Assembly: GCA_001804285.1 (NCBI GenBank)
Contig: MHFR01000037.1
Span: forward strand, 149,952-213,951
DNA length: 64,000 bases
Source: Candidatus Danuiimicrobium aquiferis
GTDB taxonomy: Bacteria > Omnitrophota > Omnitrophia > Omnitrophales > Danuiimicrobiaceae
Reading direction: 5' to 3'
The position numbers and the translations under genes are program-made. The notes under the pieces are model-generated. The model searched no databases, was not told where the DNA came from, and saw only the letters and a program-made list of their open reading frames with translations. Below are positions 38,563 to 59,729 of the stretch, piece after piece (positions within the stretch are counted from its first letter, which is position 1; each line of letters begins with the position of its first letter).

Positions 38563-38590
38563 CTTCCGGACCTACTTACGTTTAAATTTT

Positions 38591-38758
38591 GTATTTGTTT
38601 AGCGTTTTGAAGTGGCGGACACGGCCACTCGTGTCATGCCCGCATGTTTTAAGCGGGCATCCATAGTTTCTGGATTCCCGCTTTCGCGGGAATGACAGAA
38701 AAGTGGGCAATCCTTAACAGATAATCACTTCAAAGCGCTAAATAGACACTTTAATTTT
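38591..38758. repeat. MITE/REP-like palindromic element, full copy with terminal inverted repeats (TIRs)
   Basis: The TIRs are tatttgtttagcgttttgaagtg ... cacttcaaagcgctaaatag. Internal hairpins are gtcatgcccgc/gcgggcat and attcccgctttcgcgggaatgac. It is nearly identical in organisation to 46244-46434. Confidence 0.75.
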
Positions 38759-38783
38759 TTTGAAAACATTGGCTCATTACGCG

Positions 38784-41700
38784 CTATATTTGCTCCAGCT
38801 CCTGTTGTTCTTCAAAATAAAATAGCCTGTCGATTGCGCGTGTCAATAAAATGTAAAGTGAAGGAATAACGGTCAGGGTGCACACTGTGCCCCACGCATA
38901 TCCGCCGATCATCGTCACAGCGAGAGGCGCCTGAAGTTCAGACCCTTCACCGATTCCGAGGGCCAAGGGAATCAATCCCACAACGGCAGTTAACATACTC
39001 ATCGTAATGGCACGGAATCGGATGAACGACGCGTCCACACAAGCGCTCACTAATTCACTTCCTTCTCGGCGAGATTGATTAATAAAATCAATCAAAACAA
39101 TGGCGCTGTTTGTTCCCGTTCCGACCAAAATCAGAACGCCGAGAAGCGCGATGATGTTAATCGTCGTGCCGGACATCCAAAGCGCCATCGCCACGCCGAA
39201 GAGAGAAAACGGAACCGTTAAAATAATGATAAACGGATGAAGGAAAGACTCGAATTGAGCTGCCATCAGCATATAATTCAGGATAATTGCAAGGGTGGTC
39301 GCAAAATTTACCCGCTGGAATGATTCTTTGATTTCCCGCGCTTTTCCCACCAATTCAACCGTATATTCTTGCGTTAATTCAAGCTCATCAATAGCCTTTT
39401 GCGCTTGTAATAAAACATCTTTTTCCTTAAAACCCTTTTCAACCGCTGCGCTAATAGTAATCGTCCTCATTTGGTCTTTCCGCCGGATTTCGCTCGGGCC
39501 AAAACCCTGCGTGATCGTTCCGATTTCTTTCAGCATAACCGGAACTTCAAGCGAATGGCTCCGAACCAGCATGTCTCCGAGTTTTGACACATCCTGCCTG
39601 TCGTTTAACCGTAAACGAACGCGGACATCGATTTCGCGACCGCCTTCTTTATACTCCGTAGCAACAGTCCCTTCAATCGCCGCTTTCGAAGTTAGCGCAA
39701 CATCGCGCGCGGAAATCGCATAAAGAGCTGCTCGCTTGCGGTCAATTTCTACTTTGGTTTCAGGCGAAGGAGCTCCTAAATCACTCAGAACGTCCGCCGT
39801 TCCGGGAATCTCTCTGAGCATTTTTTCGACCCGATGTGAAAGGGTGGTTAATTTCCCCAAATCATAACCTTTCACTTCAATCATCACGGGTTTTCCGCCG
39901 CCTGCGGCAAATTCGAAATCGCTTTCCTGCAATACATATTCAATTTCTGCTTTTTCGATTCGATGGGCGTCAACAAGCTTCCGGAGTTCAGCAACAACGG
40001 CAGATGAGGGCCGCCTCCGCTCTTTCTTGAGCTTGATCATAATAAGCGCTTGATGAGACCGTAAACTCGAAACATTCACATCCCCAATCTTTGAAGATTG
40101 GGCAGATCCGATTGTGACTTGAATATTTTCCACCTCAGGAATTCGATTGACTTCCTGCTCAATAATCTTTGCCACTTCATCCGTTGTTTCGATCCGGCTT
40201 CCGACCGGCAGGTTCACCTTCACCATAAATTGCCCCTGGTCAACCCTTGGAACAATTTCGGTGTCCAATCCGCGTAAAATCAAAAGCGCTACAATGAAGA
40301 AACCGATTCCAATCCCGACGATTCCACGGAATAAACGGTTTTGTTTCTTACGATCAAGGTTTAAAATATAATTTTTGATTTTATTTTTGTCGATTTTGAC
40401 CGGCATTTTGAGCGCTGAAGGCTTGGGCGGCGCAATAAACACGGAAAGCATCGGAACGAGCGTCATCGAGACCACAAACGCAATCACCGTCGTATAAATA
40501 ACGGCCCATGATAAGTCCTGAAAAAGTTGACCAGCCACCCCCGGAACGAATAAAATCATCGGAAAGAAAACAGCAATGGTCGTCGCTGAACCTGTAAAAA
40601 TGGGCCAAAAAAGGTCGCTCGCCCCTTCAACGGCTGCTTCGCGGGCATCCTTTCCCTGCTCTCGTAAACGGAAAATATTTTCAATGACGCAAATTCCGTT
40701 ATCAATGACAGAACTTCCGCCGAGAGCCAATCCGAAAAGAGACATCATGTTAAGGGTAATGCCCTGGAGCTGAAAAAAGAAAAAGGTTCCGACCACCGAA
40801 ATCGGAATCGAAACAGCAACAATAAGCGCGCACGTCCAGTCCCAAAAGAAAAGAAATAAAACAATGGCAGCAAGAATTCCTCCTTGAATAGAGGAATCGC
40901 GCACGTTCGCAATCGCCTGTTTAATGAATTTTGATTGGTCATAGACCATTTCAACGGTAATCCCGCGCGAATCTAAATCGTCTTGCAGGAATTCGAGTTC
41001 CTCTTTGACCCGATCCACCACTTGAACGGTGTTGGCGGACCCTTGTTTCTGAATCGTCAATGAAATATTCTCTTTACCGTTATAGCGTGAAATGGTTGTT
41101 TTTTCATGAAAGCCATCTACGATTTCTGCAATATCGCCGACCATCACAAGGCGTCTATCACCGGAGTTTTTAGACCGTTCCTCTCGCAAGGAATCAATGG
41201 TTGACCGGATTCCTTCATCGCCTTTTTCCATAAAGGTATCCGTCTGCCGCTGAAGTTTCTTTTGAACATCGGTTGTGATGACCGTATATGCAATCTCTCG
41301 AACCGAACGAAACTCTCCGACCGTTCGAATCAAAAACTCATAAAGACCTTTCTTAATCCCGCCTGCCGGATAGGAAACATTGGCATTATCAATGGCATCA
41401 ATCACTTCCAAGATAGACACTTCCGCATTTCGCAGCCCGCCCTGATCCAATTCAACTTGAATTTCCCGGTCCAAACCGCCCGACACGCGGACAGAAGCGA
41501 CCCCTTCCACCTTCTCCAAGTTTTCTTTTAAAATTTGATCGGCCATTTGTTTCAATTCGGAAGGCGCGGCTTTCCCGGTAATCGACAACATCATCACAGG
41601 CTTCGCGAGCGGATCAAACTTCAAAACAATCGGGTCTTCCGCTTCTTTTGGCAGACGTTCTTTGACAAGATCAATTTTTTCGCGGACAGCGAGCGCGGCG

Positions 41701-42008
41701 AAATCCACATTTTCGTTCCATCCAAACGTCGCAAAAATCGTGCTCACTCCTTCTTGCGACATCGATTCTAAGCGCCGTAGACCGCTCGTAGAACTGATCG
41801 CCTCTTCGAGCGGCCGTGTAATCAGAGTCTCAATTTCTTCCGGTGCCGCGTTCACATAATTGCTCACGACCGTGATTTGCGGAAATGAAATTTTGGGAAA
41901 AAGTTCCTGTGGCAGGGACGTAAGAGCAATAATTCCCATAAATACAATCGCCGCCATCAGCATGATGGTCGTCACCCTGCGGTCGATTGAAAATTGCGGG
42001 ATATTCAT
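38784..42008 (-). CDS. RND efflux permease (AcrB/MdtB family), first of a tandem pair
   Basis: A 1074-aa ORF with N-terminus MNIPQFSIDRRVTTIMLMAAIVFMGIIALTSLPQELFP. This is a typical RND architecture. Confidence 0.9.
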   Translation of the reverse strand: MNIPQFSIDRRVTTIMLMAAIVFMGIIALTSLPQELFPKISFPQITVVSNYVNAAPEEIETLITRPLEEAISSTSGLRRLESMSQEGVSTIFATFGWNENVDFAALAVREKIDLVKERLPKEAEDPIVLKFDPLAKPVMMLSITGKAAPSELKQMADQILKENLEKVEGVASVRVSGGLDREIQVELDQGGLRNAEVSILEVIDAIDNANVSYPAGGIKKGLYEFLIRTVGEFRSVREIAYTVITTDVQKKLQRQTDTFMEKGDEGIRSTIDSLREERSKNSGDRRLVMVGDIAEIVDGFHEKTTISRYNGKENISLTIQKQGSANTVQVVDRVKEELEFLQDDLDSRGITVEMVYDQSKFIKQAIANVRDSSIQGGILAAIVLFLFFWDWTCALIVAVSIPISVVGTFFFFQLQGITLNMMSLFGLALGGSSVIDNGICVIENIFRLREQGKDAREAAVEGASDLFWPIFTGSATTIAVFFPMILFVPGVAGQLFQDLSWAVIYTTVIAFVVSMTLVPMLSVFIAPPKPSALKMPVKIDKNKIKNYILNLDRKKQNRLFRGIVGIGIGFFIVALLILRGLDTEIVPRVDQGQFMVKVNLPVGSRIETTDEVAKIIEQEVNRIPEVENIQVTIGSAQSSKIGDVNVSSLRSHQALIMIKLKKERRRPSSAVVAELRKLVDAHRIEKAEIEYVLQESDFEFAAGGGKPVMIEVKGYDLGKLTTLSHRVEKMLREIPGTADVLSDLGAPSPETKVEIDRKRAALYAISARDVALTSKAAIEGTVATEYKEGGREIDVRVRLRLNDRQDVSKLGDMLVRSHSLEVPVMLKEIGTITQGFGPSEIRRKDQMRTITISAAVEKGFKEKDVLLQAQKAIDELELTQEYTVELVGKAREIKESFQRVNFATTLAIILNYMLMAAQFESFLHPFIIILTVPFSLFGVAMALWMSGTTINIIALLGVLILVGTGTNSAIVLIDFINQSRREGSELVSACVDASFIRFRAITMSMLTAVVGLIPLALGIGEGSELQAPLAVTMIGGYAWGTVCTLTVIPSLYILLTRAIDRLFYFEEQQELEQI

Positions 42009-42026
42009 TTCATGTCACTCCAAACT

Positions 42027-42140
42027 TTATTATTTAGCGTTTTGAAGTTACTAACAAATTCCCCTCACCCTAACCCTCTCCCTGAGGGAGAGGGTTAGGG
42101 TGAGGGGCGATAGTCAACTCCAGAATACTAAATAGATGCA
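42027..42140. repeat. Palindromic element variant with the same TIR plus a GC-rich perfect hairpin
   Basis: tatttagcgttttgaagtt, then cccctcaccctaaccctctccc-tga-gggagagggttagggtgagggg as a perfect 22-bp inverted repeat. A related copy lies at 46468-46572. Confidence 0.7.
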
Positions 42141-42224
42141 TCGCTTCTACGAAATACCGTGAGGATAGAGAAAATTGTTTTATTCTGCGGTAACAAATGG
42201 GTGGGAGGGGAAAACTATCATACA

Positions 42225-43463
42225 TTAGAGCTCCGCCTCTTGAACTTCAATAATCTTGACCTTCGAACCCTCCTCCAGCCGCTCAAACCCTGACACAGCG
42301 ATGATATCACCTTCTTGAAGGCCTGAATCAATCTGCGAATAAGCCGCTTGCGTATACCCCACCACCACGGGCGCTTTGTGCGCTACTTTTTCTTTGTCAT
42401 CTATGATAAAAACAGACTGCTCGTTTTCTTTTCCTTGCAAAGCATCATTGGGAACCACAAGGGTATTTTTCTTTTGATAAAGGAGAATTTTAATACGCGC
42501 GAACATACCGGGAAGCAGCAAGTTTTCGGGATTTTCGATCCGGACTTTCACATCAGCCGTACGGGAAGTTCCCACGATCACCGGCGCAACATTTTCGACA
42601 ATACCTTCAAACACCTTGTCGGGATAGGAATCGACAAACACCTTCGCTTTTTGCCCTAACGATATTTTGTTAATGTCGCGCTCCGTCACGCCAAACTGGG
42701 CCAATACACGCTCCGTCGACACATGAGAACCTATCAAGGTATTGGGCGTAACCGTTTCACCCTCTTCAATATTCAATTGTCCGATCGTGCCCGTACTGGG
42801 CGCATACAGATTGGATTTTTCCAGCATCGCTTCGTTGGCTTTCACTTCTAACGAATTGGATTCCGCCTCGTATTTTGCCTGATCCATTTCATATTTCACT
42901 TTATCGAGAGTCGATTGAGGAATCGCACCCAGTTTAAATAAAATTTCATGCTCTCTCGTCTTGTCTTGCGCGATTTTCAAAGCGGCTCCGGCTTTCTGAA
43001 ATTGCGCTTGGGAACGTTGAAGGCGCAGCAAAATATCATCCTGGCGCAAAGACACCAACAGAGCTCCTTCCTCATATTTCTCTCCTTCGCGATAATTAAT
43101 CGCGCTCACCACTCCGGGAATTTCAAAACTTAATTTGAATTCAACAGACCCTTTAATCGTTCCGAGAGCATTCAAAGAATCTTCAAAATTAAACCTGCCA
43201 ACTTTGTACGCCGTAATCGCAATACGCTCTTCCTTTGCCCCCACCGCAACCGCATCTTCTTTGACTGCTTTCCCTTTTGGAAAAAATGCCTGCCGGATCA
43301 CTACAAGGCCTACGATAATGACAACAATAATGATCAGCCACCGAAGGTGGCCATGTGAATGCCCTGGTTTTTGTTTTTTAGATAATTTGATGCCGATTTT
43401 ATCCGGAGGTTTTATTCCACTTAATGGCGTTACCGGCTCTTTTTTCATCTCGTTTGGATCCAT
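42225..43463 (-). CDS. Efflux RND periplasmic adaptor (membrane fusion protein, HlyD/AcrA family)
   Basis: A 412-aa ORF with an N-terminal TM anchor, coiled-coil and lipoyl/beta-barrel regions. It sits between the OMP and RND genes. Confidence 0.85.
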   Translation of the reverse strand: MDPNEMKKEPVTPLSGIKPPDKIGIKLSKKQKPGHSHGHLRWLIIIVVIIVGLVVIRQAFFPKGKAVKEDAVAVGAKEERIAITAYKVGRFNFEDSLNALGTIKGSVEFKLSFEIPGVVSAINYREGEKYEEGALLVSLRQDDILLRLQRSQAQFQKAGAALKIAQDKTREHEILFKLGAIPQSTLDKVKYEMDQAKYEAESNSLEVKANEAMLEKSNLYAPSTGTIGQLNIEEGETVTPNTLIGSHVSTERVLAQFGVTERDINKISLGQKAKVFVDSYPDKVFEGIVENVAPVIVGTSRTADVKVRIENPENLLLPGMFARIKILLYQKKNTLVVPNDALQGKENEQSVFIIDDKEKVAHKAPVVVGYTQAAYSQIDSGLQEGDIIAVSGFERLEEGSKVKIIEVQEAEL

Positions 43464-43583
43464 AACGACCTTCGTCCGACTGTTTTTTTCAGCTTTGGTA
43501 CTGCTTATAAATAAATTATGACCTACGAAAACTATAATTGCAAACTTTATAAATGTTTTTTTAATGTTGAATTGATTATCTGC

Positions 43584-45338
43584 TTATAATGAAGATATTG
43601 GTATGTAATCTCTTAAGCCAATGGCCTTGTTTAATTTAGCCTTAGACAGGAAGAATTCAGAAAGGGCCTTATAAACCAACCCTCGCTCCTCCTTAAAACT
43701 CATTTCCGCCTGCAGATATTCTGATATTTGAATCTCATTGTTTTCAAGCCGATGCTTCGATACTTGGGCAAGGCGTTCCCGGTAATCCATCCTCTTATAA
43801 GATGACTCAACCTGAATGAGTGACTTATTAAAATTAAAAAAGGCTTCCTTCACATCGCGCAGCGCTTCTCTTTCCGCTTTCTCAAGTTCTACCACCTGTT
43901 CGAGTGAATTAATTTGAGCTTCCTTTAAATTGCTAAACGATTCCAAATCATCCAATATTCCGACTGAGAATGAATTGCTAATAATATGCGTGTAATTGCT
44001 CTGTTGGAACTGGCTCACAGATGGTGCACGCTCGTCATTATCGAAGGTATATTTAAATGTATTTCCCTCAAGCGGCCATGTCACTTCTATCCCAATCCTG
44101 GCTTCGGGATTCTTTATATGCTTTTTATCTTCACTCCTGTATGCCTCCCCTAATTTTCCATATTCAACAATCAAATCGGCTTGCGGCAATTTTTTGCCGA
44201 GAGTGACGCGATAGGCATAATGGGTGGCTTTCAATTTTGCGGCCTGAACCTGTAAATCAGGGCGATGTTCATACGCCAAATCCACGAACGTATCCAAACT
44301 TTTCTGGAAATCATCCGGTTTTGAAAGATTGGCTTTTTCTTTTTCCTTCTTGAACTCGTTTACATCCAAGGCATTAATATCATATAACGTTTTTACTTCG
44401 ATCGGATCCGACATGGAAAGATCTAAGAACTTCTGTAATTCCAGCCGGGCGATTTCAATCTCTTGGTTCGCTGTTTCCAAGTCATACTGCCCCTGGCTAT
44501 AAAGAGAATCAGTATTCAGCTTCTCAATTTCCGAGGTGAGTTTAGCTTCATACTTCTTGTCGGAAATATTCTTTTGTCCTTTGGCCAGTTCGAAAAGTTT
44601 CACACGGTCATATTTAACGTTGAGCGCTCTTTCGTATTCAAAATATGCCTGTGACACATCCGAAATCAAATCCGAAACTGCTTTATCGTATTCACGCTTT
44701 GCCACTTCAAGATTCGTCTGCTCGAGCATCAATGTATTCCAAATGACACCGCCCCGAAAAATGGGCTGCTTTAATTTCATCCGCCAGCTATCGGATGCAT
44801 AATCCAAACCGGACAATGGGCCGTGTTTCATTTCCCCTTCCATACGGAGCTCCGGAAAAAAATCGCGGATGGCTTTCGCCATGCGGAACTTGGCGAGGCT
44901 GATTCGTTCACTCGCGATTTTAGCGGGAACGTGTACTTGAATCGCCCTGTCAACCACCTCGGCAAGGGTTTTGTCGCGTTCTTCAAGAAACTTCATCCGG
45001 GCAAGAACGGTGTCTTCGTTGATCATGTGTTTAATGTGGGTCCATGTCAGGTACTTAAACTGCGTTTTCCGCTCGCTTTGGAATCGTTTGACTTCGGCCT
45101 TAATTTGCGCTTTATCGGGAGAGATACCCACCACCTGCTTATTTTCCTGTGCGGCGAGTCTGGGATCGACGGCTTCCAATGCCTGCATTAATGCCTGTTC
45201 GCGCTGCTGTTCTATTTTGCGCTCATCATCGGAAGTTGAAAATCGAGGTTGAACCATTTGAGCAGAAACGCTTGTCATTTGAATGACGAAAAACAAAGTC
45301 ACAAACAATGCTATGAGTTTTTTCACAGAGACCATCAT
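43584..45338 (-). CDS. TolC-like outer-membrane efflux protein
   Basis: A 599-aa ORF. The signal peptide MMVSVKKLIALFVTLFFVIQMTSVSAQ suggests the true start is near 45335-45338 rather than 45383. Paired coiled-coil repeats are typical of the OMP family, and it is the first gene of the OMP-MFP-RND-RND operon. Confidence 0.75.
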   Translation of the reverse strand: MMVSVKKLIALFVTLFFVIQMTSVSAQMVQPRFSTSDDERKIEQQREQALMQALEAVDPRLAAQENKQVVGISPDKAQIKAEVKRFQSERKTQFKYLTWTHIKHMINEDTVLARMKFLEERDKTLAEVVDRAIQVHVPAKIASERISLAKFRMAKAIRDFFPELRMEGEMKHGPLSGLDYASDSWRMKLKQPIFRGGVIWNTLMLEQTNLEVAKREYDKAVSDLISDVSQAYFEYERALNVKYDRVKLFELAKGQKNISDKKYEAKLTSEIEKLNTDSLYSQGQYDLETANQEIEIARLELQKFLDLSMSDPIEVKTLYDINALDVNEFKKEKEKANLSKPDDFQKSLDTFVDLAYEHRPDLQVQAAKLKATHYAYRVTLGKKLPQADLIVEYGKLGEAYRSEDKKHIKNPEARIGIEVTWPLEGNTFKYTFDNDERAPSVSQFQQSNYTHIISNSFSVGILDDLESFSNLKEAQINSLEQVVELEKAEREALRDVKEAFFNFNKSLIQVESSYKRMDYRERLAQVSKHRLENNEIQISEYLQAEMSFKEERGLVYKALSEFFLSKAKLNKAIGLRDYIPISSL

Positions 45339-45442
45339 TTCGTCAACAATATCGCTCCTGCATAGGATCGATGGTTTAATCATTTAAAAACTGAAAAATT
45401 ATAAATAACTATTACCTTAAAGTCAACCAAACTAACATTTTA

Positions 45443-46069
45443 TTATCGGCTTCCGGCCGCCAAAAATGAAGGGATGGTTATCAAGAGAAATGAGGTTTCT
45501 TTCATTTGCGAGTTATTGAACGAATACGGAAACTGCCCCTCGAAACACACATAATCCCCTTCTTTTACCACATACTCCTTTTTATCAAATTCAAGAATTA
45601 ACTTCCCGATAATAGACTGCGCAAAACAATGGCCTTTCGTTGCCAAAAGTTTCCGCTCAATTTTCGCTCCCGGTCTGAGGAGCACCTTGCCGACAAAATA
45701 ACCCGCTTCAATCGGTGTATAACAAATAATCCGGGCGCCGTTTTTCGGAAATTCAAGGACATGAACGCCTTTTTGATTACCGGTAAAAATGCGGTGGTCA
45801 CGCCCTTCTTCAATTTCAGAAAACAGGCTGGCAACAGAAATCCCTAAGGCTTGCGCAATCGAACACAGGAAACTAACGGAAGGATTCTTGACCCGGCCTT
45901 TCTCAATGGCATCCAAAGTTCCCGGCTGAATTCCGGCCGCTTTGGCTAAATCAATTTCTCTTAATTCTAAAGCGAGCCTTCTTCTTCGAATGACGTCTCC
46001 GGGATTAATGACAGAAGTTGCATGCACACGAGCCGGATGAGGTGTTTTAGATTGGATTTTTTTAGCCAT
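45443..46069 (-). CDS. XRE-family HTH transcriptional regulator with C-terminal cupin domain
   Basis: The N-terminal HTH is RLALELREIDLAKAAGIQPGTLDAIEKG...LCSIAQALGISVASLF. The C-terminal cupin-like beta segment is GHCFAQSIIGKLILEFD...EGDYVCF. An SD GGAGG lies upstream. Confidence 0.8.
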   Translation of the reverse strand: MAKKIQSKTPHPARVHATSVINPGDVIRRRRLALELREIDLAKAAGIQPGTLDAIEKGRVKNPSVSFLCSIAQALGISVASLFSEIEEGRDHRIFTGNQKGVHVLEFPKNGARIICYTPIEAGYFVGKVLLRPGAKIERKLLATKGHCFAQSIIGKLILEFDKKEYVVKEGDYVCFEGQFPYSFNNSQMKETSFLLITIPSFLAAGSR

Positions 46070-46151
46070 TCAATTCCTCCGCAAGAATCATAATATCTCC
46101 ATATTTCTTTTACAAATCACACCGAAGGGAAAAATCAAAAAATCTATTGTG

Positions 46152-46186
46152 AATAGTTTTATCTATTTACAATAGATAAAACTATT
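46152..46186. promoter_or_regulatory. Perfect 16-bp inverted repeat (candidate operator) upstream of the XRE/cupin regulator gene
   Basis: aatagttttatctatt-tac-aatagataaaactatt lies 83-117 bp upstream of the regulator start codon. Confidence 0.5.
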
Positions 46187-46243
46187 ATAACTATATCCTC
46201 AACAGATAAGAATTACAAGGCTTCCGCGTGTGGAATTGTCGTA

Positions 46244-46434
46244 TCTATTTAGCGTTTTGAAGTGGTGAACACGCCAGTTCGTGTCATGCCCGCATGCTTT
46301 CCCTCAGTAAAGCGAGGGCCGGCCCTATATTTCCAGGGAAGCGGGCACCCATAGTTGCTGGATTCCCTCTTTCGCGGGAATGACAAAGCATTAAAACCTT
46401 TACAGATAATAACTTCAAAACGCTAAACAAATAC
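46244..46434. repeat. MITE/REP-like palindromic element, full copy
   Basis: The TIRs are tatttagcgttttgaagtgg ... cttcaaaacgctaaacaaatac. The internal hairpins match the copy at 38591. Confidence 0.75.
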
Positions 46435-46467
46435 GAATTGTTGTTTATGGAACAACGTGTCTGATTA

Positions 46468-46572
46468 CCGCTTTGAAGAAATTAACAAATCCACCCTCAC
46501 CCCCGCCCTCTCCCTCGGGGAGAGGGTTAGGGTGAGGGGCAATAGTCAACTTCAGAACACCAAATAAAATAC
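46468..46572. repeat. Palindromic element variant (GC-rich hairpin type)
   Basis: gctttgaagaaattaacaaatcc, then ccctctccctcggggagagggttagggtgagggg, then ttcagaacaccaaataaa. It is homologous to 42027-42140. Confidence 0.7.
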
Positions 46573-46582
46573 CGTGCCTCAA

Positions 46583-48289
46583 TCAGTCCCGAAGCAATTC
46601 CTGAACCTTGCCCAAAACTTCGCTGATTGGAACGACGAGGCTTTCTTGCGAAGCACGTTTCTTAATTTCTATTACTCCTTTAACCAAATTTCTTTCACCT
46701 ACCACCACATGAAAAGGCGCTCCAACCAAGTCTGCGTCATTAAACTTCACACCGGCTCTTTCCTCACGGTCATCATAGAGACAGTCAATTCCGGCTTCGA
46801 TGAGTTTTGAATAAAGCTGATCAGCGGCTTCGCGTGTACCGTCATGGCTGTGATTGACTGTAAGCAGTTCTACTTGAAATGGCGCGACAGCAACGGGCCA
46901 TTTCATTCCCTTTGAGTCATTGTGCTGTTCAACAATCGCCGCCATGATTCGATTCACTCCCAAGCCATAGCATCCCATAATCACAAGTTTTTCCGCGCCC
47001 GAACTGTCTTTGTATTTAACATTCAAACATTCCGTATACCGCGTCCCGAGCTGAAAGACGTGCCCGACTTCCATCGCCGTAATGAGCAAAAGTTTATTTC
47101 CGCATTGCGCGCACAAATCCCCTTCCTGAACGAACCGGATATCTCCGGACTGGCTGTAATTAAAATCGCGCCCGACATTCACATGCTTCATATGTTTATC
47201 TTTTTGATTGGCACCCGTCACAAAATCCTGATCGAGCAACAGATCGGCATCAATGATAATCTTGACATCCCTAAGGCCGACCGGAGAAGCAAAACCAAGC
47301 GGAGCCCCTGTTACTTTTTCAATTTCTTTTGCGTTCGCAAGACACAGCTGTTTCGCGCCCAGCAAATTCCTGAGTTTCCCTTCATGCACTTCATGATCCC
47401 CCCGGACACAAGCAGCCACCGGATCACGGTCATTCATCATATAAATAATGGTTTTCATCAATTTCCGCGGCGCTATATGAAAATGTGTTGAAATATCATG
47501 AATTGTTTTCAGATTTGGCGTGTCAAAAATTTCAATTTTCGAACTCGTGGGCGGCGTTGTCTGTTTGGATAATTTTCTTGCCGCAATATCACGGCTCGTC
47601 ACCATCTTGCACGTTTCGCAAACCGCTAAATGATCTTCGCCATATTCTGAACGGACCATAAACTCATGAGAAACTTTTCCGCCCATAATTCCAGGATCAG
47701 CCGTAACAATATCGAAAGAAAGCCCGAGCCGCGTCAATATTTTTTGATACGCGTGATACATGTTCTGATAACTTTTTTTAAGGCCTTCTTCATCCGCGTC
47801 AAAACTATACGCATCTTTCATGATAAATTCTTTCGTCCGGATAATCCCGAATCGCGGCCGAAGCTCGTCTCGGAATTTGGTCTGAATTTGATAAAGCGTC
47901 TTCGGCAGCGCATGTTGCGTTTGAAGATAGGCGCCGGCAAGTTCCGTAATCACTTCCTCGTGCGTAGGGCCTAATACATATTCCGTCCCCGTCCGGTTCT
48001 TGAATGAAATTTTGTCCTCGCCCAGGGCATCGTAACGGCCGGTTTGTTTCCAAATCTCCGCCGGCTGAAGCGCCGGCAACAGAAGTTCAACCGCACCCGC
48101 ACTGTTCATTTCCTCGCGGATGATCCGGCAAATATTTTGAAGGACCCGAAAACCAAGCGGCAAATAGCTGTAAACGCCGGAAGAAAGCTTTCGAATATAG
48201 CCCGCTTTCAATAATAATTGATGACTTTTCGCTTCAGCTTCCTTGGGAATTTCGCGTAAAGTCGGTATTAAAATGGTTCCCCAACGCAT
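46583..48289 (-). CDS. proS: Prolyl-tRNA synthetase
   Basis: A 568-aa ORF with class II aaRS motifs and typical ProRS N-terminal sequence. It occupies the conserved position after rseP. Confidence 0.9.
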   Translation of the reverse strand: MRWGTILIPTLREIPKEAEAKSHQLLLKAGYIRKLSSGVYSYLPLGFRVLQNICRIIREEMNSAGAVELLLPALQPAEIWKQTGRYDALGEDKISFKNRTGTEYVLGPTHEEVITELAGAYLQTQHALPKTLYQIQTKFRDELRPRFGIIRTKEFIMKDAYSFDADEEGLKKSYQNMYHAYQKILTRLGLSFDIVTADPGIMGGKVSHEFMVRSEYGEDHLAVCETCKMVTSRDIAARKLSKQTTPPTSSKIEIFDTPNLKTIHDISTHFHIAPRKLMKTIIYMMNDRDPVAACVRGDHEVHEGKLRNLLGAKQLCLANAKEIEKVTGAPLGFASPVGLRDVKIIIDADLLLDQDFVTGANQKDKHMKHVNVGRDFNYSQSGDIRFVQEGDLCAQCGNKLLLITAMEVGHVFQLGTRYTECLNVKYKDSSGAEKLVIMGCYGLGVNRIMAAIVEQHNDSKGMKWPVAVAPFQVELLTVNHSHDGTREAADQLYSKLIEAGIDCLYDDREERAGVKFNDADLVGAPFHVVVGERNLVKGVIEIKKRASQESLVVPISEVLGKVQELLRD

Positions 48290-48325
48290 TTTTTTCTCTC
48301 CATATAAAAATTTTTATCAAAAAAT

Positions 48326-48390
48326 GTCATTCCCGAATGCTTTTATCGGGAATCTACAATTAATGGATTCCCGCTTTCGCGGGAATGACA
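48326..48390. repeat. Short two-hairpin copy of the palindromic repeat family
   Basis: gtcattcccgaatgcttttatcgggaatcta ... ggattcccgctttcgcgggaatgaca. Confidence 0.7.
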
Positions 48391-48400
48391 TCACATACCC

Positions 48401-49534
48401 TTATGACGGTTTCAGCATCATGAATAAGTGTTTAAGCTTCTCTACCACCCCGACATTGATCAGATCATTATAAAAAACTACCACCATGAGCACCATCAAC
48501 AGATAAAACCCGTAGGTCGTAATCCGTTCCTGGACCGGAATGCTGACCGGTCGACGGAAAATCCATTCGATCAGAAGAAAAACCAAGTGCCCTCCGTCAA
48601 GCGCCGGGATCGGCAGCAAATTAATGACCGCAAGCGAAATACTCAGAAGCGCGGTAAATTGCAAAACCGCATCTACTCCCAGCTTCACCACATCGCCGGC
48701 CATTTTGACAATGACAATCGGGCCGCTCAGGGATTTGATCGACATTCGCCCCGTAAATAGCCGAAAGAGCGCTTCATAAGTCAGCCCTGCCAAATTCGCC
48801 GTTATTCTTGCCGCTTCAATCGTTGCCTGTGGAAATTTTAATTTCTCAATCGCAACACTTTCCGAAGACGGCAGAATCCCGACACGCGGCATCTGCTTCT
48901 TCGTTCCGAACATATCCGGCGCCTGTTCGTAAATGGGTTCAACCATAATGGTTTTGATTTCTTCGCTGCGGCGCACGGAAAATTCGATTTGCTTGGTATT
49001 AATTTTCGAAAGCTGAAAAGTCAAATCCTGCCAGTCCTTCACGGATTTGCCGTTCAACCGGGTCACCACATCGCCGAGCATTAATCCGCTTTTTTGCGCA
49101 GGATATCCATCGATCATTTTTCCGATTTTTGCCGAGGTAATCGACCTCCCCATACAAAGAACCATAACAAAAATCAGATAAGCGAATAAATAATTCATCG
49201 CGACACCCGAGACAACGATAAAAATCCTCCGCCAAACGATCGCGCTTAAATAATCTCCTTCTACTTCACCTTTTCCTCGAGTTTTAACATCTTCTTCCGT
49301 CTCTCCCTGAGGTTTAACAAAGCCGCCGATTGGAATAAGTGAAAGAGAATAACGGGTTCGCTTTCCCTGGAATGAGAAAAGCTCGGGCCCGAATCCGATC
49401 GAAAATTTCTGGACTCCGACACCCGACAACCGGCAGGCAATAAAATGCCCCAACTCATGGATCGCAATTAAAACGCCCAAAATCAATAAGGTCGGAACGA
49501 TTTGTAAAAGAAAATGAATCAACCAACTTAACAT
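48401..49534 (-). CDS. rseP: RIP site-2 metalloprotease RseP (zinc, with PDZ domain)
   Basis: HELGHF zinc motif in TM1 and a PDZ segment. The LDG motif region (IPALDGGH) is present. The start is probably the internal Met near 49534, because the 49561 start overlaps dxr by 34 nt. Confidence 0.85.
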   Translation of the reverse strand: MLSWLIHFLLQIVPTLLILGVLIAIHELGHFIACRLSGVGVQKFSIGFGPELFSFQGKRTRYSLSLIPIGGFVKPQGETEEDVKTRGKGEVEGDYLSAIVWRRIFIVVSGVAMNYLFAYLIFVMVLCMGRSITSAKIGKMIDGYPAQKSGLMLGDVVTRLNGKSVKDWQDLTFQLSKINTKQIEFSVRRSEEIKTIMVEPIYEQAPDMFGTKKQMPRVGILPSSESVAIEKLKFPQATIEAARITANLAGLTYEALFRLFTGRMSIKSLSGPIVIVKMAGDVVKLGVDAVLQFTALLSISLAVINLLPIPALDGGHLVFLLIEWIFRRPVSIPVQERITTYGFYLLMVLMVVVFYNDLINVGVVEKLKHLFMMLKPS

Positions 49535-50670
49535 AACGCCTCTGCTTTCTCGCGAGCCCAATGATCAATGCACAGAATTTCGTCAAGCGACGAATGTGCC
49601 ACGCAACGGTGTTTGGCCATCACGCCTTCAATAATCTTGGGGATCACATCAAATGAAATCCGTTCGTTTAAAAACCACTGAACCGCCACTTCGTTTGCCG
49701 CATTTAAAACTATCGGCATTGTCCCGCCTTTCCGAATAGCTTCATAGCCCAGCCGGAGGCACGGAAATTTCTTTAGATCCGGTTTGTAAAAATGAAACGG
49801 TCCGGTGTTTGCCAAATCAAGCGACGGTAATAAATTCTGAAGCCGTTCCGGATAACTCATTGCATACTGGATCGGAAGGCGCATATCCGGTATCCCAAGC
49901 TGAGCAAGCTGTGCGCCGTCAACAAATTCAATCATGGCATGAATCATCGCTTCGGGATGAATAAGCACTTCAATCCGGTCCGGTGAAACACCGAAAAGAT
50001 GTGCAGCTTCAATCACTTCGAGCCCTTTATTCATCATGGTAGCAGAATCAATTGTAATTTTGGGCCCCATTTTCCATTTCGGATGTTCAAGCGCTTTTTG
50101 CTTAGTCACTTTCCGAAAATCAACTTTTTTCCCAAAAAATGGCCCGCCGGATGCGGTTAAAATTAATTTCCGGACCGTTTTCGCGTCGCGTCCCTGCAAA
50201 CACTGCCAAAGCCCCGAGTGTTCACTATCAATAGGAAGAACGGTCGCGCCGGATTTTTTCGCTTCTGCCATCAACAATCCACCCGCCATCACCAGCGGCT
50301 CTTTATTTGCAATCGCGACACGTTTTCCCGCCGAAACAGCTGCGAGCATCGGTTTTAATCCGACGGCACCGACTATAGAAAAGATGACCTGGTCAGCGCC
50401 CCGAAACGTGCTCGCTTCAATCAAGCCGCTTTCGCCCGTCACAACGCGGATATGAAGCGGCTTCAGTTTTCGCTCAAGCTCGAAAACAGTTTCATTTTCA
50501 AATAAACAAACGAGTTTCGGCCTGTATTTTTTCGCCTGTTCAAAAAGGAGTTCCGTATTTCGCCGCGCCGCAAGCACCGCTACTTTAAATTCTTTCGGGT
50601 GTTCATCAATCACACGAAGCGCATTCACTCCGATAGAACCTGTTGAACCCAATATCGCGATTTGTTTCAT
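49528..50670 (-). CDS. dxr: 1-deoxy-D-xylulose-5-phosphate reductoisomerase
   Basis: A 380-aa ORF with the NADPH-binding N-terminus KQIAILGSTGSIG. Confidence 0.9.
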   Translation of the reverse strand: MKQIAILGSTGSIGVNALRVIDEHPKEFKVAVLAARRNTELLFEQAKKYRPKLVCLFENETVFELERKLKPLHIRVVTGESGLIEASTFRGADQVIFSIVGAVGLKPMLAAVSAGKRVAIANKEPLVMAGGLLMAEAKKSGATVLPIDSEHSGLWQCLQGRDAKTVRKLILTASGGPFFGKKVDFRKVTKQKALEHPKWKMGPKITIDSATMMNKGLEVIEAAHLFGVSPDRIEVLIHPEAMIHAMIEFVDGAQLAQLGIPDMRLPIQYAMSYPERLQNLLPSLDLANTGPFHFYKPDLKKFPCLRLGYEAIRKGGTMPIVLNAANEVAVQWFLNERISFDVIPKIIEGVMAKHRCVAHSSLDEILCIDHWAREKAEALC

Positions 50671-50671
50671 T

Positions 50672-51490
50672 TTATTTCACGGCAGAAAGGTCTAAAATAA
50701 CCGTTAGGTAATAATATAAAACGGGAATGGTGAGTAACAGACTATCAATCACGTCCAATATTCCGCCGAGCCCGGGAATAATTCCCGAATCCTTGATGTT
50801 CGCGTCACGCTTCAAGAGGCTTTCCGCCAAATCTCCAAACTGGCCCAAAATTCCAAGAACAAATCCTAAAATGGCCAAATCCATAAAATGGATTTCGGGT
50901 AAATAAAATTTTGCCGTCAAAGAACAAAGCATCGTCATCACAAAACCGGCAATCGCCCCTTCAATTGATTTGTTCGGGCTGATATGAACGATATATTTAT
51001 GGACTCCGTACTTCCGGCCGACAAAAAAAGCGGCCGCATCGCCCATTTTCAGCATAAACAGCAAGTAAAATATCCACCATGAACCGTCGGGAAGTGACCG
51101 AATCTGACTGATAAATGAGAAAAACCATCCCACATAAATAATTCCAAACAATGTCACGGCCGTGCTGACAAGCGCGTTCTCGCGGAGTTTTCGATGAAAA
51201 TTAAAAATAAAAATACAAAGTACGGCTATCGTCAGAATCATCGTTTTTGTCGGAAGGGTCATCGGAAGCGAAAGCAGCGCCGCAAAAAAGACCCCCAGAT
51301 ACCGGTTGATCACAAGGCCTTTCCGTTCGGCTAAATTGAAATATTCAAGAAGCCCGATAACGATAATGACTTCCGTAACGGCCAAAAAAATCAAAGTGGA
51401 GGCGTAAAAAATCGCATACGAAGTAGCAATGATGATGAAAAGGGATGAGATGAGTCTTTTTTCAAGTTGCGTCATTTTTTCGAAAATCAT
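50672..51490 (-). CDS. cdsA: Phosphatidate cytidylyltransferase
   Basis: A 272-aa polytopic protein with the C-terminal signature KRDANIKDSGIIPGLGGILDVIDSLL. Confidence 0.85.
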   Translation of the reverse strand: MIFEKMTQLEKRLISSLFIIIATSYAIFYASTLIFLAVTEVIIVIGLLEYFNLAERKGLVINRYLGVFFAALLSLPMTLPTKTMILTIAVLCIFIFNFHRKLRENALVSTAVTLFGIIYVGWFFSFISQIRSLPDGSWWIFYLLFMLKMGDAAAFFVGRKYGVHKYIVHISPNKSIEGAIAGFVMTMLCSLTAKFYLPEIHFMDLAILGFVLGILGQFGDLAESLLKRDANIKDSGIIPGLGGILDVIDSLLLTIPVLYYYLTVILDLSAVK

Positions 51491-52227
51491 ACCGATTTAC
51501 ACCGTTCCGTCCGCCCGAACCGTCGCTCACGCCGCTGATAATCTTTTAACGCTTCGAGAAAATCTTCCTTTGTGAAATCTGGCCAAAATTTCGGACTGAC
51601 ATAAATTTCCGCATATGAAATCTGCCATAGAAGAAAATTGCTGACACGCATTTCTCCACTCGTACGAATCAATAGATCCGGATCGGGCAGATTCGCTGTA
51701 TAAAGCGCGCGGGAAACGCAATCCTCATTGATCTCGCTGTAATTTAATTCATTCCGGACAACTTTTTCACACAATTTCTTGATCGCATCGATCATTTCCA
51801 CACGGCTGGAATAACTTAACGCAAGCGTCAAAAGCAATCCCGGTTCATTTTTTGTGTCCTCAACCGTCTTCCGTATTTTCTCTTGAATTTGACCGGGGAG
51901 ATCTTCGATTCTTCCGATGACATTAAAACGAACTCGATTTTTTCGCAATTCCTTAATTTCTAAATCTAAATATTGCGATAATAGATTCATCAAAAAACCG
52001 ACTTCATCTTTTGGCCGATTCCAATTTTCTTTTGAAAAAGCATAAAGTGTTAAATATCGGACCCCCTGATCGCTTGCCGTCCGGACAATCTCGCGGATCG
52101 TATCGACACCTTTTTGATGCCCCATGATACGGGGCATCCCGCGCTGTTTGGCCCAGCGGCCGTTGCCGTCCATAATGATCGCAACATGTTTCGGAATCTC
52201 GTTTAAAATTTCCCGGTCATTTCCCAT
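51487..52227 (-). CDS. uppS: Undecaprenyl-diphosphate synthase (cis-prenyltransferase)
   Basis: HVAIIMDGNGRWA motif, with a 4-nt ATGA overlap with cdsA. Confidence 0.9.
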   Translation of the reverse strand: MGNDREILNEIPKHVAIIMDGNGRWAKQRGMPRIMGHQKGVDTIREIVRTASDQGVRYLTLYAFSKENWNRPKDEVGFLMNLLSQYLDLEIKELRKNRVRFNVIGRIEDLPGQIQEKIRKTVEDTKNEPGLLLTLALSYSSRVEMIDAIKKLCEKVVRNELNYSEINEDCVSRALYTANLPDPDLLIRTSGEMRVSNFLLWQISYAEIYVSPKFWPDFTKEDFLEALKDYQRRERRFGRTERCKSV

Positions 52228-53518
52228 CGATAAATATGGTTTGTAAACGTTCGGATCCTATGGAAACGATTGAAATCCGTGTTTCAAGCATATCTTCAAG
52301 GCGTGTCAAATATGATTTCGCTTTTGCGGGCAATTTCTTCCATTCTCGAATGTGCGATGTTTGTTCGAGCCAGCCGGGACACTCAACATACACCGGCTTC
52401 GCATGCGCGAGGACCTCTTGATCCGCCGGAAAATTTCGAAATTGTTTTCCTTTATATTGATATGCCACACAAATTTTTATGGTCGGAAGCGTATCTAACA
52501 CATCAAGTTTCGTCACAGCCATTTTGCTCAAGCCATTCACCAACACGGAATGTTTCACTAAAAGCGCATCAAACCAGCCGCAACGGCGAGGGCGTCCCGT
52601 CGTCGCCCCGAATTCCTCACCCAGCTCACGGACCATCGCCATTAAAGCCGGCGGAAATTCCGTCGGAAAAGGCCCTTCGCCGACGCGTGTCGTATACGCC
52701 TTTACAACACCGATCACTTCCTCAATATGGGCCGGACTCAAGCCCGTCCCGGTAATGGCTCCTCCGGCGGACGCGTTCGAAGATGTCACATACGGATAAG
52801 TCCCATGGTCAACATCAAGATGCGTTCCCTGCGCGCCTTCAAAAAGAATCCTCTTTTTTGCGCGATGCGCTTCGGCAAGTAACAGTTCGGTACTGCAGAC
52901 AAACGGCGATAGACGATCGCGATAATGCGTATATTCTCTATGAATTTTCGAAAAAGAAAATGGCTGATGCCGATAAACCGCTTGGAGGATATGGTTCTGC
53001 TCTTTTAATACATAAGTAAGCCGGTCTCGAAACACTTTCGGATTCATCAAATCCGCAACGCGAATGCCTAAACGATCCGCTTTATCCGCATAACAAGGGC
53101 CTATTCCGCGTTTCGTCGTCCCGATTTTTCCGCTTCCTTTCTGCCCTTCCCTCAACTGATCCAGCAAACGGTGATACGGAAAAATTAAATGTGCGCGGTC
53201 ACTCACAAACAACCGGTTCTTAACGAAAACATTGCTCTCCCGCAATATTTCAATCTCATGAAAAAATGCTTCAAGATCAATCACCACCCCATTTCCGATC
53301 ACGCATTTCTTACCGGGATGTAGGATTCCGGAAGGAAGCAGATGAAGAATAAATTTTTTATCACCGTAACGCACCGTATGGCCGGCATTATTTCCGCCCT
53401 GATAACGGACAATGATATCGCTATTTTCCGTTAGTAAATCAATGATCTTCCCTTTTCCTTCATCACCCCATTGAGCGCCAACGAGAATCGTTGTCCGTTT
53501 CATGATGTTTTTAGGCAT
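52217..53518 (-). CDS. purA: Adenylosuccinate synthetase
   Basis: P-loop GAQWGDEGKGK with GGNNAGHT. A 433-aa ORF. Confidence 0.9.
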   Translation of the reverse strand: MPKNIMKRTTILVGAQWGDEGKGKIIDLLTENSDIIVRYQGGNNAGHTVRYGDKKFILHLLPSGILHPGKKCVIGNGVVIDLEAFFHEIEILRESNVFVKNRLFVSDRAHLIFPYHRLLDQLREGQKGSGKIGTTKRGIGPCYADKADRLGIRVADLMNPKVFRDRLTYVLKEQNHILQAVYRHQPFSFSKIHREYTHYRDRLSPFVCSTELLLAEAHRAKKRILFEGAQGTHLDVDHGTYPYVTSSNASAGGAITGTGLSPAHIEEVIGVVKAYTTRVGEGPFPTEFPPALMAMVRELGEEFGATTGRPRRCGWFDALLVKHSVLVNGLSKMAVTKLDVLDTLPTIKICVAYQYKGKQFRNFPADQEVLAHAKPVYVECPGWLEQTSHIREWKKLPAKAKSYLTRLEDMLETRISIVSIGSERLQTIFIDGK

Positions 53519-53646
53519 GAAAAACGTCCTTTGTGTAATTTATGTTTCAATTTAAATTTCAGTTCATTCTATGATCTTTTTCTAATCAAATCCGGACACA
53601 AACAACTCACGCCCGATTAAACCTTCAACCGGCCGTTCGTCTCTAA

Positions 53647-55260
53647 TTAAAAATGAATCACTTTCGCATCTATAATTGGAGGAACCGCTTTGAGTTCATC
53701 CAAAACAGCGGCGGGAATATCCTGATCGGTGTTAATGACAGTCATTGCGTATGCCTTGCCTTTTTTTTCTACGCGTCCCAATGTCATTTCGGCAATATTA
53801 ATTTTATTCTTACCGAGCACACTTCCAATCGTCCCCACGACACCCGGGAGATCTTCGTTATGAATGGAGAGCACCACGCCTCTCGGAATCATTTCAAGAA
53901 AAAACTCGTTAATCCGGACAATTCGGGGTTCGCGTTTTCCAAAAAGCGTTCCCATGACCGAATTCGTTTGCCCGTCCATTTTCACTTCCACCGTAATAAA
54001 TGAGGAGAAGTCTTCAACTTGCGTTGTTTTGCTCTCACTAACAGCAATCCCACGCTCTTTTGCAATCGCCGGCGCATTCACAAAATTAACAATTCCGTCA
54101 CAAACTTTTTCGAGCAGTCCCTTGAGAACCGCGATCGTCAGTGGCGCCATATTATAATTCGTAATCTCACCGCCATAACGAATGCTCACTTCTTGGAAAC
54201 GCCCGCCGAAAAGCTGCGCCTGCATGAGGCCAAGACACTCAGCCAAACGAATCCATGGTTTAAGGACTCGGAGTGTTTCCTGGTCAACTGAAGGCATATT
54301 CACGGCATTGCGAATTCCGCGTTCTAAAAGCGCATCCGCAACCTGCTGAGCAACTGCAATCGCAACATTTTCCTGCGCTTCTTCGGTAGAGGCCCCAAGA
54401 TGAGGAGTCGCGATAACGTGATCAAGTACCAAGAGAGGATTATTCTCGGGCGGCTCTTTTGCAAACACGTCTAAGGCCGCACCTTTGACTTGTCCCGATT
54501 GAATCGCATCACAAAGCGCTTGTTCATCGACCAGCCCGCCGCGTGCGCAATTGATAATCGAAACGCCTTTTTTCATTTTGGCAATCGATCCGGCATTAAT
54601 GATATTTTTCGTGTCATCATTTTTGGGAACATGCAAAGTAATAAAATCTGCCTGACGGAACACCGTGTCTAAATCAACAACTTCAATCCCGAGCTGCCCG
54701 ACATTTTCCGCTGAAATATAAGGGTCATACCCAATCACGCGCATTCCGAATGCAATCGCACGTTTCGCCACTTCCCGTCCGATTCGTCCCAATCCAATAA
54801 CACCCAATGTTTTCTCATTGAGTTCCGTTCCCATAAATTGGGCCCGCTTCCATTCGCCTTTGTGAATACTTTCATTGGCTTGCGCAATGTTTCTCGCAAG
54901 CGCCATCAACATTGAAAACGAATGTTCCGCTGTTGAAATCGTATTTCCGTCCGGCGTATTCATCACCACAATTCCCTGCTTTGTCGCTGTAGGCATATCC
55001 ACATTATCAACACCCACCCCTGCGCGCCCGACCAAAGTCAAACGCTTGGCAGCTTCAAGAATATCCTTCGTCATCTGAGTTCCGGAGCGAATCACAATCG
55101 CATCGTACTCGCCGATAATCGCTTTTAATTCTTCCGGCTTAAGACCCGGCTTATTATCCACCTGGAATTCCGGTTCTTTCTTGAGAATGTTTAAACCGCC
55201 TTCGCCAAGTTTATCACTGACTAAAATTTTAAATTGCTTCTTCTCGGTCATAGTCGTCAT
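53647..55260 (-). CDS. serA: D-3-phosphoglycerate dehydrogenase with C-terminal ACT domain
   Basis: The 2-hydroxyacid dehydrogenase fold (GxGxxG GVIGLGRIG) and a C-terminal ACT segment. I corrected the start to Met MTTMTEKKQFKIL at 55260, because the track's 55437 start translates through a repeat element. Confidence 0.85.
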   Translation of the reverse strand: MTTMTEKKQFKILVSDKLGEGGLNILKKEPEFQVDNKPGLKPEELKAIIGEYDAIVIRSGTQMTKDILEAAKRLTLVGRAGVGVDNVDMPTATKQGIVVMNTPDGNTISTAEHSFSMLMALARNIAQANESIHKGEWKRAQFMGTELNEKTLGVIGLGRIGREVAKRAIAFGMRVIGYDPYISAENVGQLGIEVVDLDTVFRQADFITLHVPKNDDTKNIINAGSIAKMKKGVSIINCARGGLVDEQALCDAIQSGQVKGAALDVFAKEPPENNPLLVLDHVIATPHLGASTEEAQENVAIAVAQQVADALLERGIRNAVNMPSVDQETLRVLKPWIRLAECLGLMQAQLFGGRFQEVSIRYGGEITNYNMAPLTIAVLKGLLEKVCDGIVNFVNAPAIAKERGIAVSESKTTQVEDFSSFITVEVKMDGQTNSVMGTLFGKREPRIVRINEFFLEMIPRGVVLSIHNEDLPGVVGTIGSVLGKNKINIAEMTLGRVEKKGKAYAMTVINTDQDIPAAVLDELKAVPPIIDAKVIHF

Positions 55261-55302
55261 GGTTTCACACCTTCCTTTTTTACTCAACCTGACCGGTTTT
55301 TT

Positions 55303-55410
55303 GTCATTCCCGCAAGTTTTAAGCGGGAATCTAAGGTTGTAGATTCCCGACAACCCCGGAAAAGCTGGGGTCGGCCCTTTCTTTCCCAAGGGAAGCTTTC
55401 GGGAATGACA
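55303..55410. repeat. Palindromic repeat-family copy in the serA upstream region
   Basis: gtcattcccgcaagttttaagcgggaatcta ... cgggaatgacac, with a central hairpin ccccggaaaagctggggt. Confidence 0.7.
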
Positions 55411-59714: not shown

Positions 59715-59729
59715 ATTGCTCTGCTCTTT

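Follow-up and report, generated by a model that had tools for sequence, protein, structure and literature searches.

The 64,000 nucleotides analysed here (contig MHFR01000037.1, assembly GCA_001804285.1, positions 149,952 to 213,951; hereafter the window) come from Candidatus Danuiimicrobium aquiferis, a Rifle aquifer Omnitrophica metagenome-assembled genome (MAG) of an uncultured Omnitrophota lineage, which hosts a set of palindromic repeats in the gaps between its genes. Every gene from 35.4 to 58.6 kb lies on the minus strand. In order of transcription these encode trigger factor, ClpP, a SerC-like protein, SerA, PurA, UppS, CdsA, Dxr, RseP and ProS, followed by an efflux operon with a helix-turn-helix (HTH) regulator, an outer efflux protein (OEP), a membrane fusion protein (MFP) and two resistance-nodulation-division (RND) pumps. 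The MFP protein is 100% identical to OGW79614.1 and related entries (Omnitrophica bacterium RIFCSPLOWO2_12_FULL_44_17 and RIFCSPHIGHO2_02_FULL_45_28). There are seven intergenic gaps of 100 bp or more between 35.4 and 58 kb, and repeat elements occupy five of them: the RND-RND gap (38563-38783), the MFP-RND gap (42009-42224), the region upstream of the HTH regulator, where there are two copies, the proS-rseP gap and the region upstream of serA. We present evidence that these elements are very probably built in three nested layers, namely a shell of the miniature inverted-repeat transposable element (MITE) kind with ends of the IS66 type, a cargo of NTS/SRM or BoxC hairpins, and a mini-insert within some of the hairpins.

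The repeats are far above chance. Compared with dinucleotide shuffles, the end motif TTAGCGTTTTGAAGT was found 10 times in the window with up to three mismatches (3.3 in shuffles; 0 of 100 shuffles reached 10), while the 26-nt hairpin GGATTCCCGCTTTCGCGGGAATGACA was observed three times (0 expected), the TGTCATKCCCG...CGGGMAT hairpin six times and the GC-rich arm GGGAGAGGGTTAGGGTGAGGG four times, both with 0 in shuffles. A sequence-only reading of this DNA had listed six sites, all of which carry the motifs described there, and a repeat search added a seventh, partial site within a coding region (3572-3629). Profiles trained with nhmmer solely on copies outside the window recovered all seven sites and gave no other convincing match in the window: the type-1 profile (for copies with a hairpin pair) found 38591-38748 (E 1e-47) and 46241-46434 (E 4e-40), the type-2 profile (for copies with a single long palindrome) found 42029-42137 (E 6e-28) and 46458-46568 (E 2e-24), and core-only matches were obtained at 48324-48393, 55298-55361 and 3597-3633. 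Five independent assemblies match the window at 100% identity over stretches of 4.2-7.2 kb, copies included, and a sixth (L002) is 99.97% identical. At the gathering threshold, Rfam reports three tRNAs in the window and no repeat family.

The sequence-only reading was right in kind, since it described non-autonomous MITE-like and REP-like elements, but too simple, and it is best regarded as partly supported. In place of the single family that it proposed we find three nested classes: an IS66-derived shell, an NTS/SRM or BoxC cargo and a loop-specific mini-insert. Two of its six sites (48325-48390 and 55303-55409) lack terminal inverted repeats (TIRs) and so cannot be counted as copies of one unit. 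It had placed two copies correctly at the RND-RND and MFP-RND junctions of the efflux operon; the boundaries of the four complete elements needed correction and appear in their mended form in the table.

Features of the repeat elements in the window, grouped by site (positions are those of the window)
Feature	Position	Strand	Location	Details
Type-1 MITE, 159 bp	38591-38749		RND-RND gap	left end 38591-38613, GTATTTGTTTAGCGTTTTGAAGT; right end 38727-38749
SRM-type hairpin A, long-loop form	38633-38663	+	within the 38591-38749 MITE	GTCATGCCCGC-atgttttaa-GCGGGCATCCA; fits the published degenerate SRM motif
SRM/NTS hairpin B	38670-38697	-		minus-strand reading TGTCATTCCCGCGAAAGCGGGAATCCAG; 27/28 against the Neisseria NTS consensus
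Type-2 MITE, 114 bp	42026-42139		MFP-RND gap	ends about 5 bp from the RND Shine-Dalgarno sequence
BoxC/PIT-type perfect palindrome	42061-42107		inside 42026-42139	42074-42107 equals E. coli K-12 TMECO no. 17
Type-1 MITE, 194 bp including nested mini-insert	46241-46434		upstream of efflux operon	both 23-nt ends intact
Mini-insert variant alpha, 38 nt	46301-46338	+	in hairpin A loop	CCCTCAGTAAAGCGAGGG CCGG CCCTATATTTCCAGGG
Type-2 MITE	46457-46572			ends degenerate (3 mismatches each); BoxC-type palindrome 46494-46539
Bare inverted SRM hairpin pair, 66 bp	48325-48390		between proS and rseP	without IS66-type ends or duplication
Bare inverted SRM hairpin pair	55303-55409		upstream of serA	without IS66-type ends or duplication; mini-insert in one hairpin
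Mini-insert variant beta, 39 nt	55354-55392	-	in one hairpin of 55303-55409	
Half SRM stub and complete hairpin A	3572-3582 and 3599-3629	+	in frame in giant minus-strand ORF	

The shell is defined by its ends. These are 23-nt TIRs (GTATYTRTTTAGCGTTTTGAAGT) starting GTAT or GTGT, rather than the 17-nt repeats first proposed, and they match the ends of single-ORF (open reading frame) insertion sequences (ISs) of the IS66 family, also written GTNNNTNTTTAGC. A metagenome scan with the 18-mer end gave related copies, whose ends were then extended to 23 nt, and 36 distinct paired copies were delimited in the window and related contigs. They are 114-293 bp long and have no coding capacity. Perfect 8-bp target-site duplications flank 17 of the 36 (examples are AAAGTACG, GAATATTT, TATTCCCA, CATCGATT and AACCACAT) and duplications with one mismatch flank another four; nearly all type-1 copies of 158-160 bp have perfect duplications. 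With boundaries adjusted, two more type-2 copies and a copy from Elusimicrobia also proved perfect. The full copies thus have real TIRs and their relatives real duplications, as expected of MITEs, and the family is present elsewhere, in related contigs, so that the sequence-only reading withstands the refuting condition it had set. A scan of a genome-contig collection that does not include the host genome, again with the 18-mer end, returned 34 matches, approximately the number expected by chance; seven of these, in three lineages (L015, L017, L018, L023, L024), are true relatives.

Several relatives deserve separate description. The Elusimicrobia copy (L023 655-790, RIFOXYA2_FULL_50_26) is a MITE with the same end 16-mer and the duplication AATTTGAC, and the hairpin pair it carries belongs to another SRM variant (GTCATTGCGAGC...), so the design of a shell plus a pair recurs across phyla with locally different hairpins. 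At L061 5725-6075 a type-1 MITE sits within a type-2-like palindrome (flanks CCCCCCAA / CCCCCCCC), a MITE nested in a MITE. The 154-bp type-1 copy at L076 7719-7872 has its mini-insert joined straight to ...GGGAATGAC; the remainder of both hairpins is missing through a deletion that looks like recombination between repeated stems.

Copies in the window are of mixed age, with intact ends at 46241-46434 and worn ends in both type-2 copies. The 8-bp flanks of 46241-46434, GAATTGTC (46233-46240) and GAATTGTT (46435-46442), match at seven of eight positions. For 38591-38749 the ends are good, and the flanking 8-mers TAAATTTT and TTTAATTT are A/T-rich and agree at only five of eight, so the duplication is degenerate. 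The type-2 element at 42026-42139 has a degenerate left tip (TTTATTA...) and no detectable target duplication, and is therefore an old copy. There is likewise no detectable duplication around 46457-46572, which lies approximately 22 bp from the preceding type-1 copy. An alignment of L104 with the window is uninformative about an empty site for the type-2 MITE, because synteny breaks off there.

A candidate source of transposase was found behind identical ends. In L046 the 16-mer TTTAGCGTTTTGAAGT, within the 23-nt end GTACTTGTTTAGCGTTTTGAAGT, stands directly in front of a 463-aa ORF, and the same 23-nt end occurs at no fewer than seven different flanks. This ORF and a 457-aa ORF in L115 both contain the PF03050 DDE_Tnp_IS66 domain (E 6e-36 and 1e-45) together with zf-IS66. 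L115 carries a complete IS at 1695-3431 (1737 bp), with ends GTATCTGTTTAGCC... and GTAATTATTTAGCC... and the 8-bp duplication GGAAGTAA on both sides; it has a single transposase ORF, with no tnpA or tnpB between its ends, and shares its contig with a 293-bp MITE. Just past the transposase stop codon (3285-3410) there is a subterminal inverted repeat (CTGTTCCCGCAAGCAGGC...) with stems of approximately 27 bp. A transposase homologue with 60% identity is present in a named Omnitrophica MAG (L132), with the end GTGTCTGTTTAGCTTTCTGAAGT. ISDge4 of the ISBst12 group has the ends GTGACTACTCAGCA and GTAACTGCTCAGCA and an 8-bp direct repeat (PMC12898284), and the elements described here resemble the ISBst12 group (ISBst12, ISDge4) in their GTA/GTG ends, their 8-bp duplication and a partner transposase encoded by a single ORF of approximately 450-460 aa with PF03050 and zf-IS66. 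As is usual for MITEs, only the ends are shared with the IS. Unlike a deleted IS, the interior consists of hairpins from other repeat classes. No match to IS66 transposases was obtained in the window by tblastn, and a Pfam survey of the window gave a tyrosine integrase (61327-62541) as the only recombinase; the elements are therefore non-autonomous, as the sequence-only reading had held.

The cargo of type-1 copies is an inverted pair of NTS/SRM hairpins (motif also written GTCATTCCCGCGAAAGCGGGAATCC), of which hairpin B differs by one mismatch from the NTS CGTCATTCCCGCGMAVGCGGGAATCYRG. The NTS consensus occurs in the window at one site with one mismatch and at three sites with at most three, and the degenerate SRM pattern has three matches compared to 0.16 in shuffles. 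In Neisseria, the NTS contains the older dRS3 repeat ATTCCC-N8-GGGAAT and is bound and cut as single-stranded DNA (ssDNA) by the small GIY-YIG nuclease SsnA, while a degenerate version, the SRM, occurs across phyla and often flanks ssn genes on either side (Nat Commun 2025;16:2388). Exact dRS3 patterns lie at 38674, 46362 and 48367, the first of them (38674-38693) held by hairpin B. There is no sign of the NIME arrangement, in which dRS3 repeats bracket RS units of 50-150 bp. As in Neisseria, the hairpins have asymmetric flanks (GTCAT... ...ATCCAG) and are mostly intergenic; unlike there, they form tight inverted pairs that often lie inside a transposon shell. The alignment of type-1 copies has conserved ends and hairpins with variable arms between them, and stem variants in relatives keep pairing (ATTCCGGC/GCCGGAAT, ATGCCCGC/GCGGGCAT and ATCCCCGC/GCGGGGAT). 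The partial site at 3572-3629 is translated as ...VDSRLKPAGMTEEVKSAGMT... within the giant ORF.

A search for ssn/GIY-YIG genes by regular expression and tblastn found none in the window or in the Omnitrophota loci examined, with Desulfobacterales the only positives among the loci searched, and a protein search for Ssn named no Omnitrophica among the best 120 of 4243 matches. The SRM label in Omnitrophota is thus one of sequence similarity. Elsewhere, ssn-like genes flanked by inverted SRMs are found in Desulfobacterales (L018) and Nitrosomonas (L130). At L018 4930-5500, and also in L015 and L090 (Desulfobacterales), the exact 16-mer TTTAGCGTTTTGAAGT abuts an array of SRM half-hairpins, after which comes an ssn-like GIY-YIG gene between inverted SRMs; no second end was found there. 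This layout hints at a physical link of IS66-type ends with SRM-ssn units. In Nitrosomonas sp. wSCUT-2 (L130 1030-1540) the ssn-like gene and GTCATTTCG-type hairpins lie between hsdS and hsdR of a type I restriction system.

The cargo of type-2 copies is a perfect BoxC/PIT palindrome, with a 34-nt core (42074-42107) identical to TMECO no. 17 of MG1655. The BoxC-type sequence CCCTCTCCC-N3-GGGAGAGGG-TTA-GGGTGAGGG, in an intergenic position, is found in the window. By blastn, the core is present in 4138 of 5426 complete E. coli genomes, where it is bare, without IS66-type arms. The likeness to the E. coli BoxC/PIT/TMECO repeats goes beyond the core: approximately 46 of 49 nt agree when the whole palindrome of an E. 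coli copy is compared, the position is again intergenic and the sequence is conserved across phyla. The E. coli repeats, described as forming intrastrand triplexes, are bare and no mobility function was found near them (NAR 2015;43:10126); unlike them, the copies studied here have IS66-type ends and, in the relatives L081 and L058, perfect 8-bp duplications.

Compared by architecture only, QMITE2 of Coxiella burnetii is the closest precedent. In its full-size copies a REP-like palindrome is bracketed by TIRs and by unique direct repeats of 7-11 bp; its small versions lack both and amount to the bare palindrome (BMC Genomics 2018;19:247). An actual Coxiella QMITE, suggested by the low GC content and the style of the hairpins, was set aside because the host is an Omnitrophica MAG. 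The core of QMITE2 is a GTAG-type REP targeted by IS1111, unlike the SRM/BoxC core and IS66-type shell described here. The elements also share with repetitive extragenic palindromes (REPs), REPINs and bacterial interspersed mosaic elements the form of short intergenic palindromes that occur singly, as inverted pairs or as mosaics. No REP-associated tyrosine transposase (RAYT, a Y1 transposase) is encoded among the window ORFs scanned, the GTAG/CTAC tetranucleotide is present in some copies only and, unlike REPINs, the full copies have duplications of the DDE type. Every component belongs to a known class, while no earlier description of an IS66-derived MITE, or of these repeats in Omnitrophota, was found in the literature searched.

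The third layer is a mini-insert of 38-39 nt consisting of two small hairpins (CCC...GGG CCGR CCC...GGG), in two sequence variants. It accounts for the extra length of 46241-46434 and 55303-55409. We found it in at least 10 host hairpins with different stems, loops and flanks. It invariably lies midway along the long loop of an SRM of the hairpin A type, with a constant orientation relative to the hairpin and no duplication. Uninterrupted forms of the site in other copies read ...ATGCTTT/AAGCGGGCA... (the slash marks the point of insertion), and an orthologous empty site is present at L104 1892-1959 (GACAA/AAGCTTTC), in the pair upstream of serA, with flanks approximately 95% identical. Repeated site-specific insertion and gene conversion between copies are both possible origins. 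An apparent presence/absence polymorphism of the mini-insert between L002 and the window was rejected as a probable assembly chimera, since the two sequences begin to diverge where a contig ends and the right arm changes into the one belonging to a different copy. SRM loops at L043 154-339 and L041 1374-1470 contain a third type of insert, a near-palindrome (AGCGAAGCAGCACTGCTCCGCCGTG); SRM loops thus look like hot spots for nested hairpins in general.

All of the elements fold very stably as RNA on the transcribed strand, with energies of -32 to -67 kcal/mol and z-scores of -5 to -12 (-67.5 kcal/mol and z -9.1 for 38591-38749; -66 kcal/mol and z -11.6 for 42026-42139). The type-2 palindrome at 42061-42107 is the only one with a terminator-like score, obtained on the transcribed minus strand. 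The region has 22 terminator-like sites, compared to 23.2 in shuffles, and 33 promoter-like sites, compared to 26.3. A promoter arising from a MITE arm was considered (a 9/12 match at 42057-42029, directed towards the RND gene) and rejected, the regional count being judged no higher than in shuffles. The homologous PIT elements of E. coli are reported to have neither promoter nor terminator activity (PMC4666352). Attenuation or stabilisation of the efflux transcript by the elements, as the sequence-only reading had suggested, is possible but unsupported.

Taken together, these observations point with good confidence to three nested layers in this Omnitrophica genome. The shell is a MITE derived from a single-ORF IS66-family IS of the ISBst12 group, of which the 23-nt TIRs are the only mobile feature retained. 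An IS66-family DDE transposase supplied from elsewhere in the genome would bind these ends and move the MITE in trans, generating the 8-bp duplication. The cargo hairpins also exist free-standing, both here and in other phyla; the bare pairs and the in-frame half copy represent cargo without a shell, and the layout of a bare pair may correspond to an SRM-ssn-SRM unit minus its gene. The mini-insert, with its single orientation and lack of target duplication, would have been placed by a mechanism other than DDE transposition. Elements of this kind are probably primarily selfish and would lie in intergenic gaps because insertions are tolerated there; if the hairpins, very stable as RNA, affect the efflux operon at all, they would do so incidentally.

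Some observations weigh against this interpretation. No IS66 copy is seen in the host's own sequence (64 kb plus a few kb of identical contigs), so co-residence of MITE and IS is supported by related metagenome contigs and by another Omnitrophica MAG. The window copies are the weakest examples, with one duplication matching at 7/8, one degenerate and two type-2 copies with none. The covariation support for the hairpins is thin: four pairs with a double change were detected in the type-1 alignment, mostly from one divergent lineage with compensatory variants. The absence of an ssn gene (GIY-YIG, cd10448) from the window and the Omnitrophota loci leaves the SRM identity as a putative one. Finally, gene conversion from copy to copy, and not insertion, could have spread the mini-insert.

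The alternative that comes closest is that the hairpin pairs are themselves the real mobile unit, either non-autonomous derivatives of SRM-ssn-SRM or REPIN-like, moved by the Ssn GIY-YIG protein or by a RAYT/Y1 enzyme, with the IS66-like ends incidental. Bare pairs and single hairpins do occur at many unique loci without TIRs, ssn-like genes lie between inverted SRMs in L018 and L130, and the Ssn family is 70-77% identical across phyla, suggesting horizontal spread; the NTS-ssnA-NTS layout has itself been likened to an IS (Nat Commun 2025;16:2388). However, the perfect 8-bp duplications abut the IS66-type ends and not the hairpins, whereas the bare pairs have neither a duplication nor a conserved flank. 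Moreover, the sequence searched yielded neither an ssn nor a Y1 gene, and Ssn is known to cut ssDNA, not to transpose (Nat Commun 2025;16:2388). We therefore regard independent movement of the hairpin pairs as improbable.

Selection by the host for regulatory RNA, with the elements acting as intra-operon terminators or attenuators or as 3' stabilisers and their repetition reflecting function, is harder still to sustain, and we give it little credence. Transposition is evident from the target duplications and from an IS with the same ends, the same elements are found at unrelated loci in both orientations, and the region is not enriched over shuffles in terminator-like or promoter-like sites. 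The reported lack of promoter or terminator activity in E. coli PIT/BoxC (PMC4666352) also counts against a regulatory role, although the very stable folds (-32 to -67 kcal/mol), the presence of elements in five of the seven larger gaps of co-directional genes and the terminator-like score, on the transcribed strand, of the type-2 stem followed by GAATTTGTT in the MFP-RND gap would be in keeping with one. An artefactual origin of the repeats, whether from chance, low complexity or metagenome assembly, can be virtually dismissed: the contig end of L002 differs from the window inside the 46.3-kb copy and may be an assembly chimera, but five other independent assemblies are 100% identical across 4.2-7.2 kb including copies, shuffle controls give approximately no expected matches, and dozens of related copies have their own flanks and duplications.

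The three-layer interpretation links the commonest intergenic repeat in an uncultured Omnitrophota lineage to a family of transposases and supplies a mechanism for it, and it extends NTS/SRM and BoxC/PIT to a phylum with no earlier report of either. If both motifs are able to travel as cargo of DDE-type MITEs, this offers a testable route to their puzzling cross-phylum distribution. Annotation gains as well, since unrecognised hairpins give rise to spurious ORFs (...WIPAFAGMT.../...VIPAKAGIQ...) and break assemblies; for the efflux operon, two junctions are marked at which equal expression of the five genes should not be assumed. A bolder proposal, which we offer as speculative and rather unlikely, is that IS66-type shells package and spread NTS/SRM and BoxC/PIT, while the mini-insert targets SRM loops through an undescribed form of ssDNA-hairpin mobility. 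If true, this would be the first link of BoxC to a mobility mechanism.

The remainder of the window contains two further features. Positions 1-35241 are occupied on the minus strand by a single stop-free frame of at least 11,747 codons; its start is near 35241 and it continues past the low end of the window. Omnitrophota are known to have giant genes. At the other end, 58700-64000 encodes tRNA-Gly, tRNA-Leu and tRNA-Lys, a zeta-toxin-like ORF (59955-60563) and a Gp49-like ORF, with the tyrosine integrase (61327-62541) adjoining tRNA-Lys and a 45-nt direct repeat, 82% identical, at 59744-59788 and 60551-60595. This region may be an integrated element.

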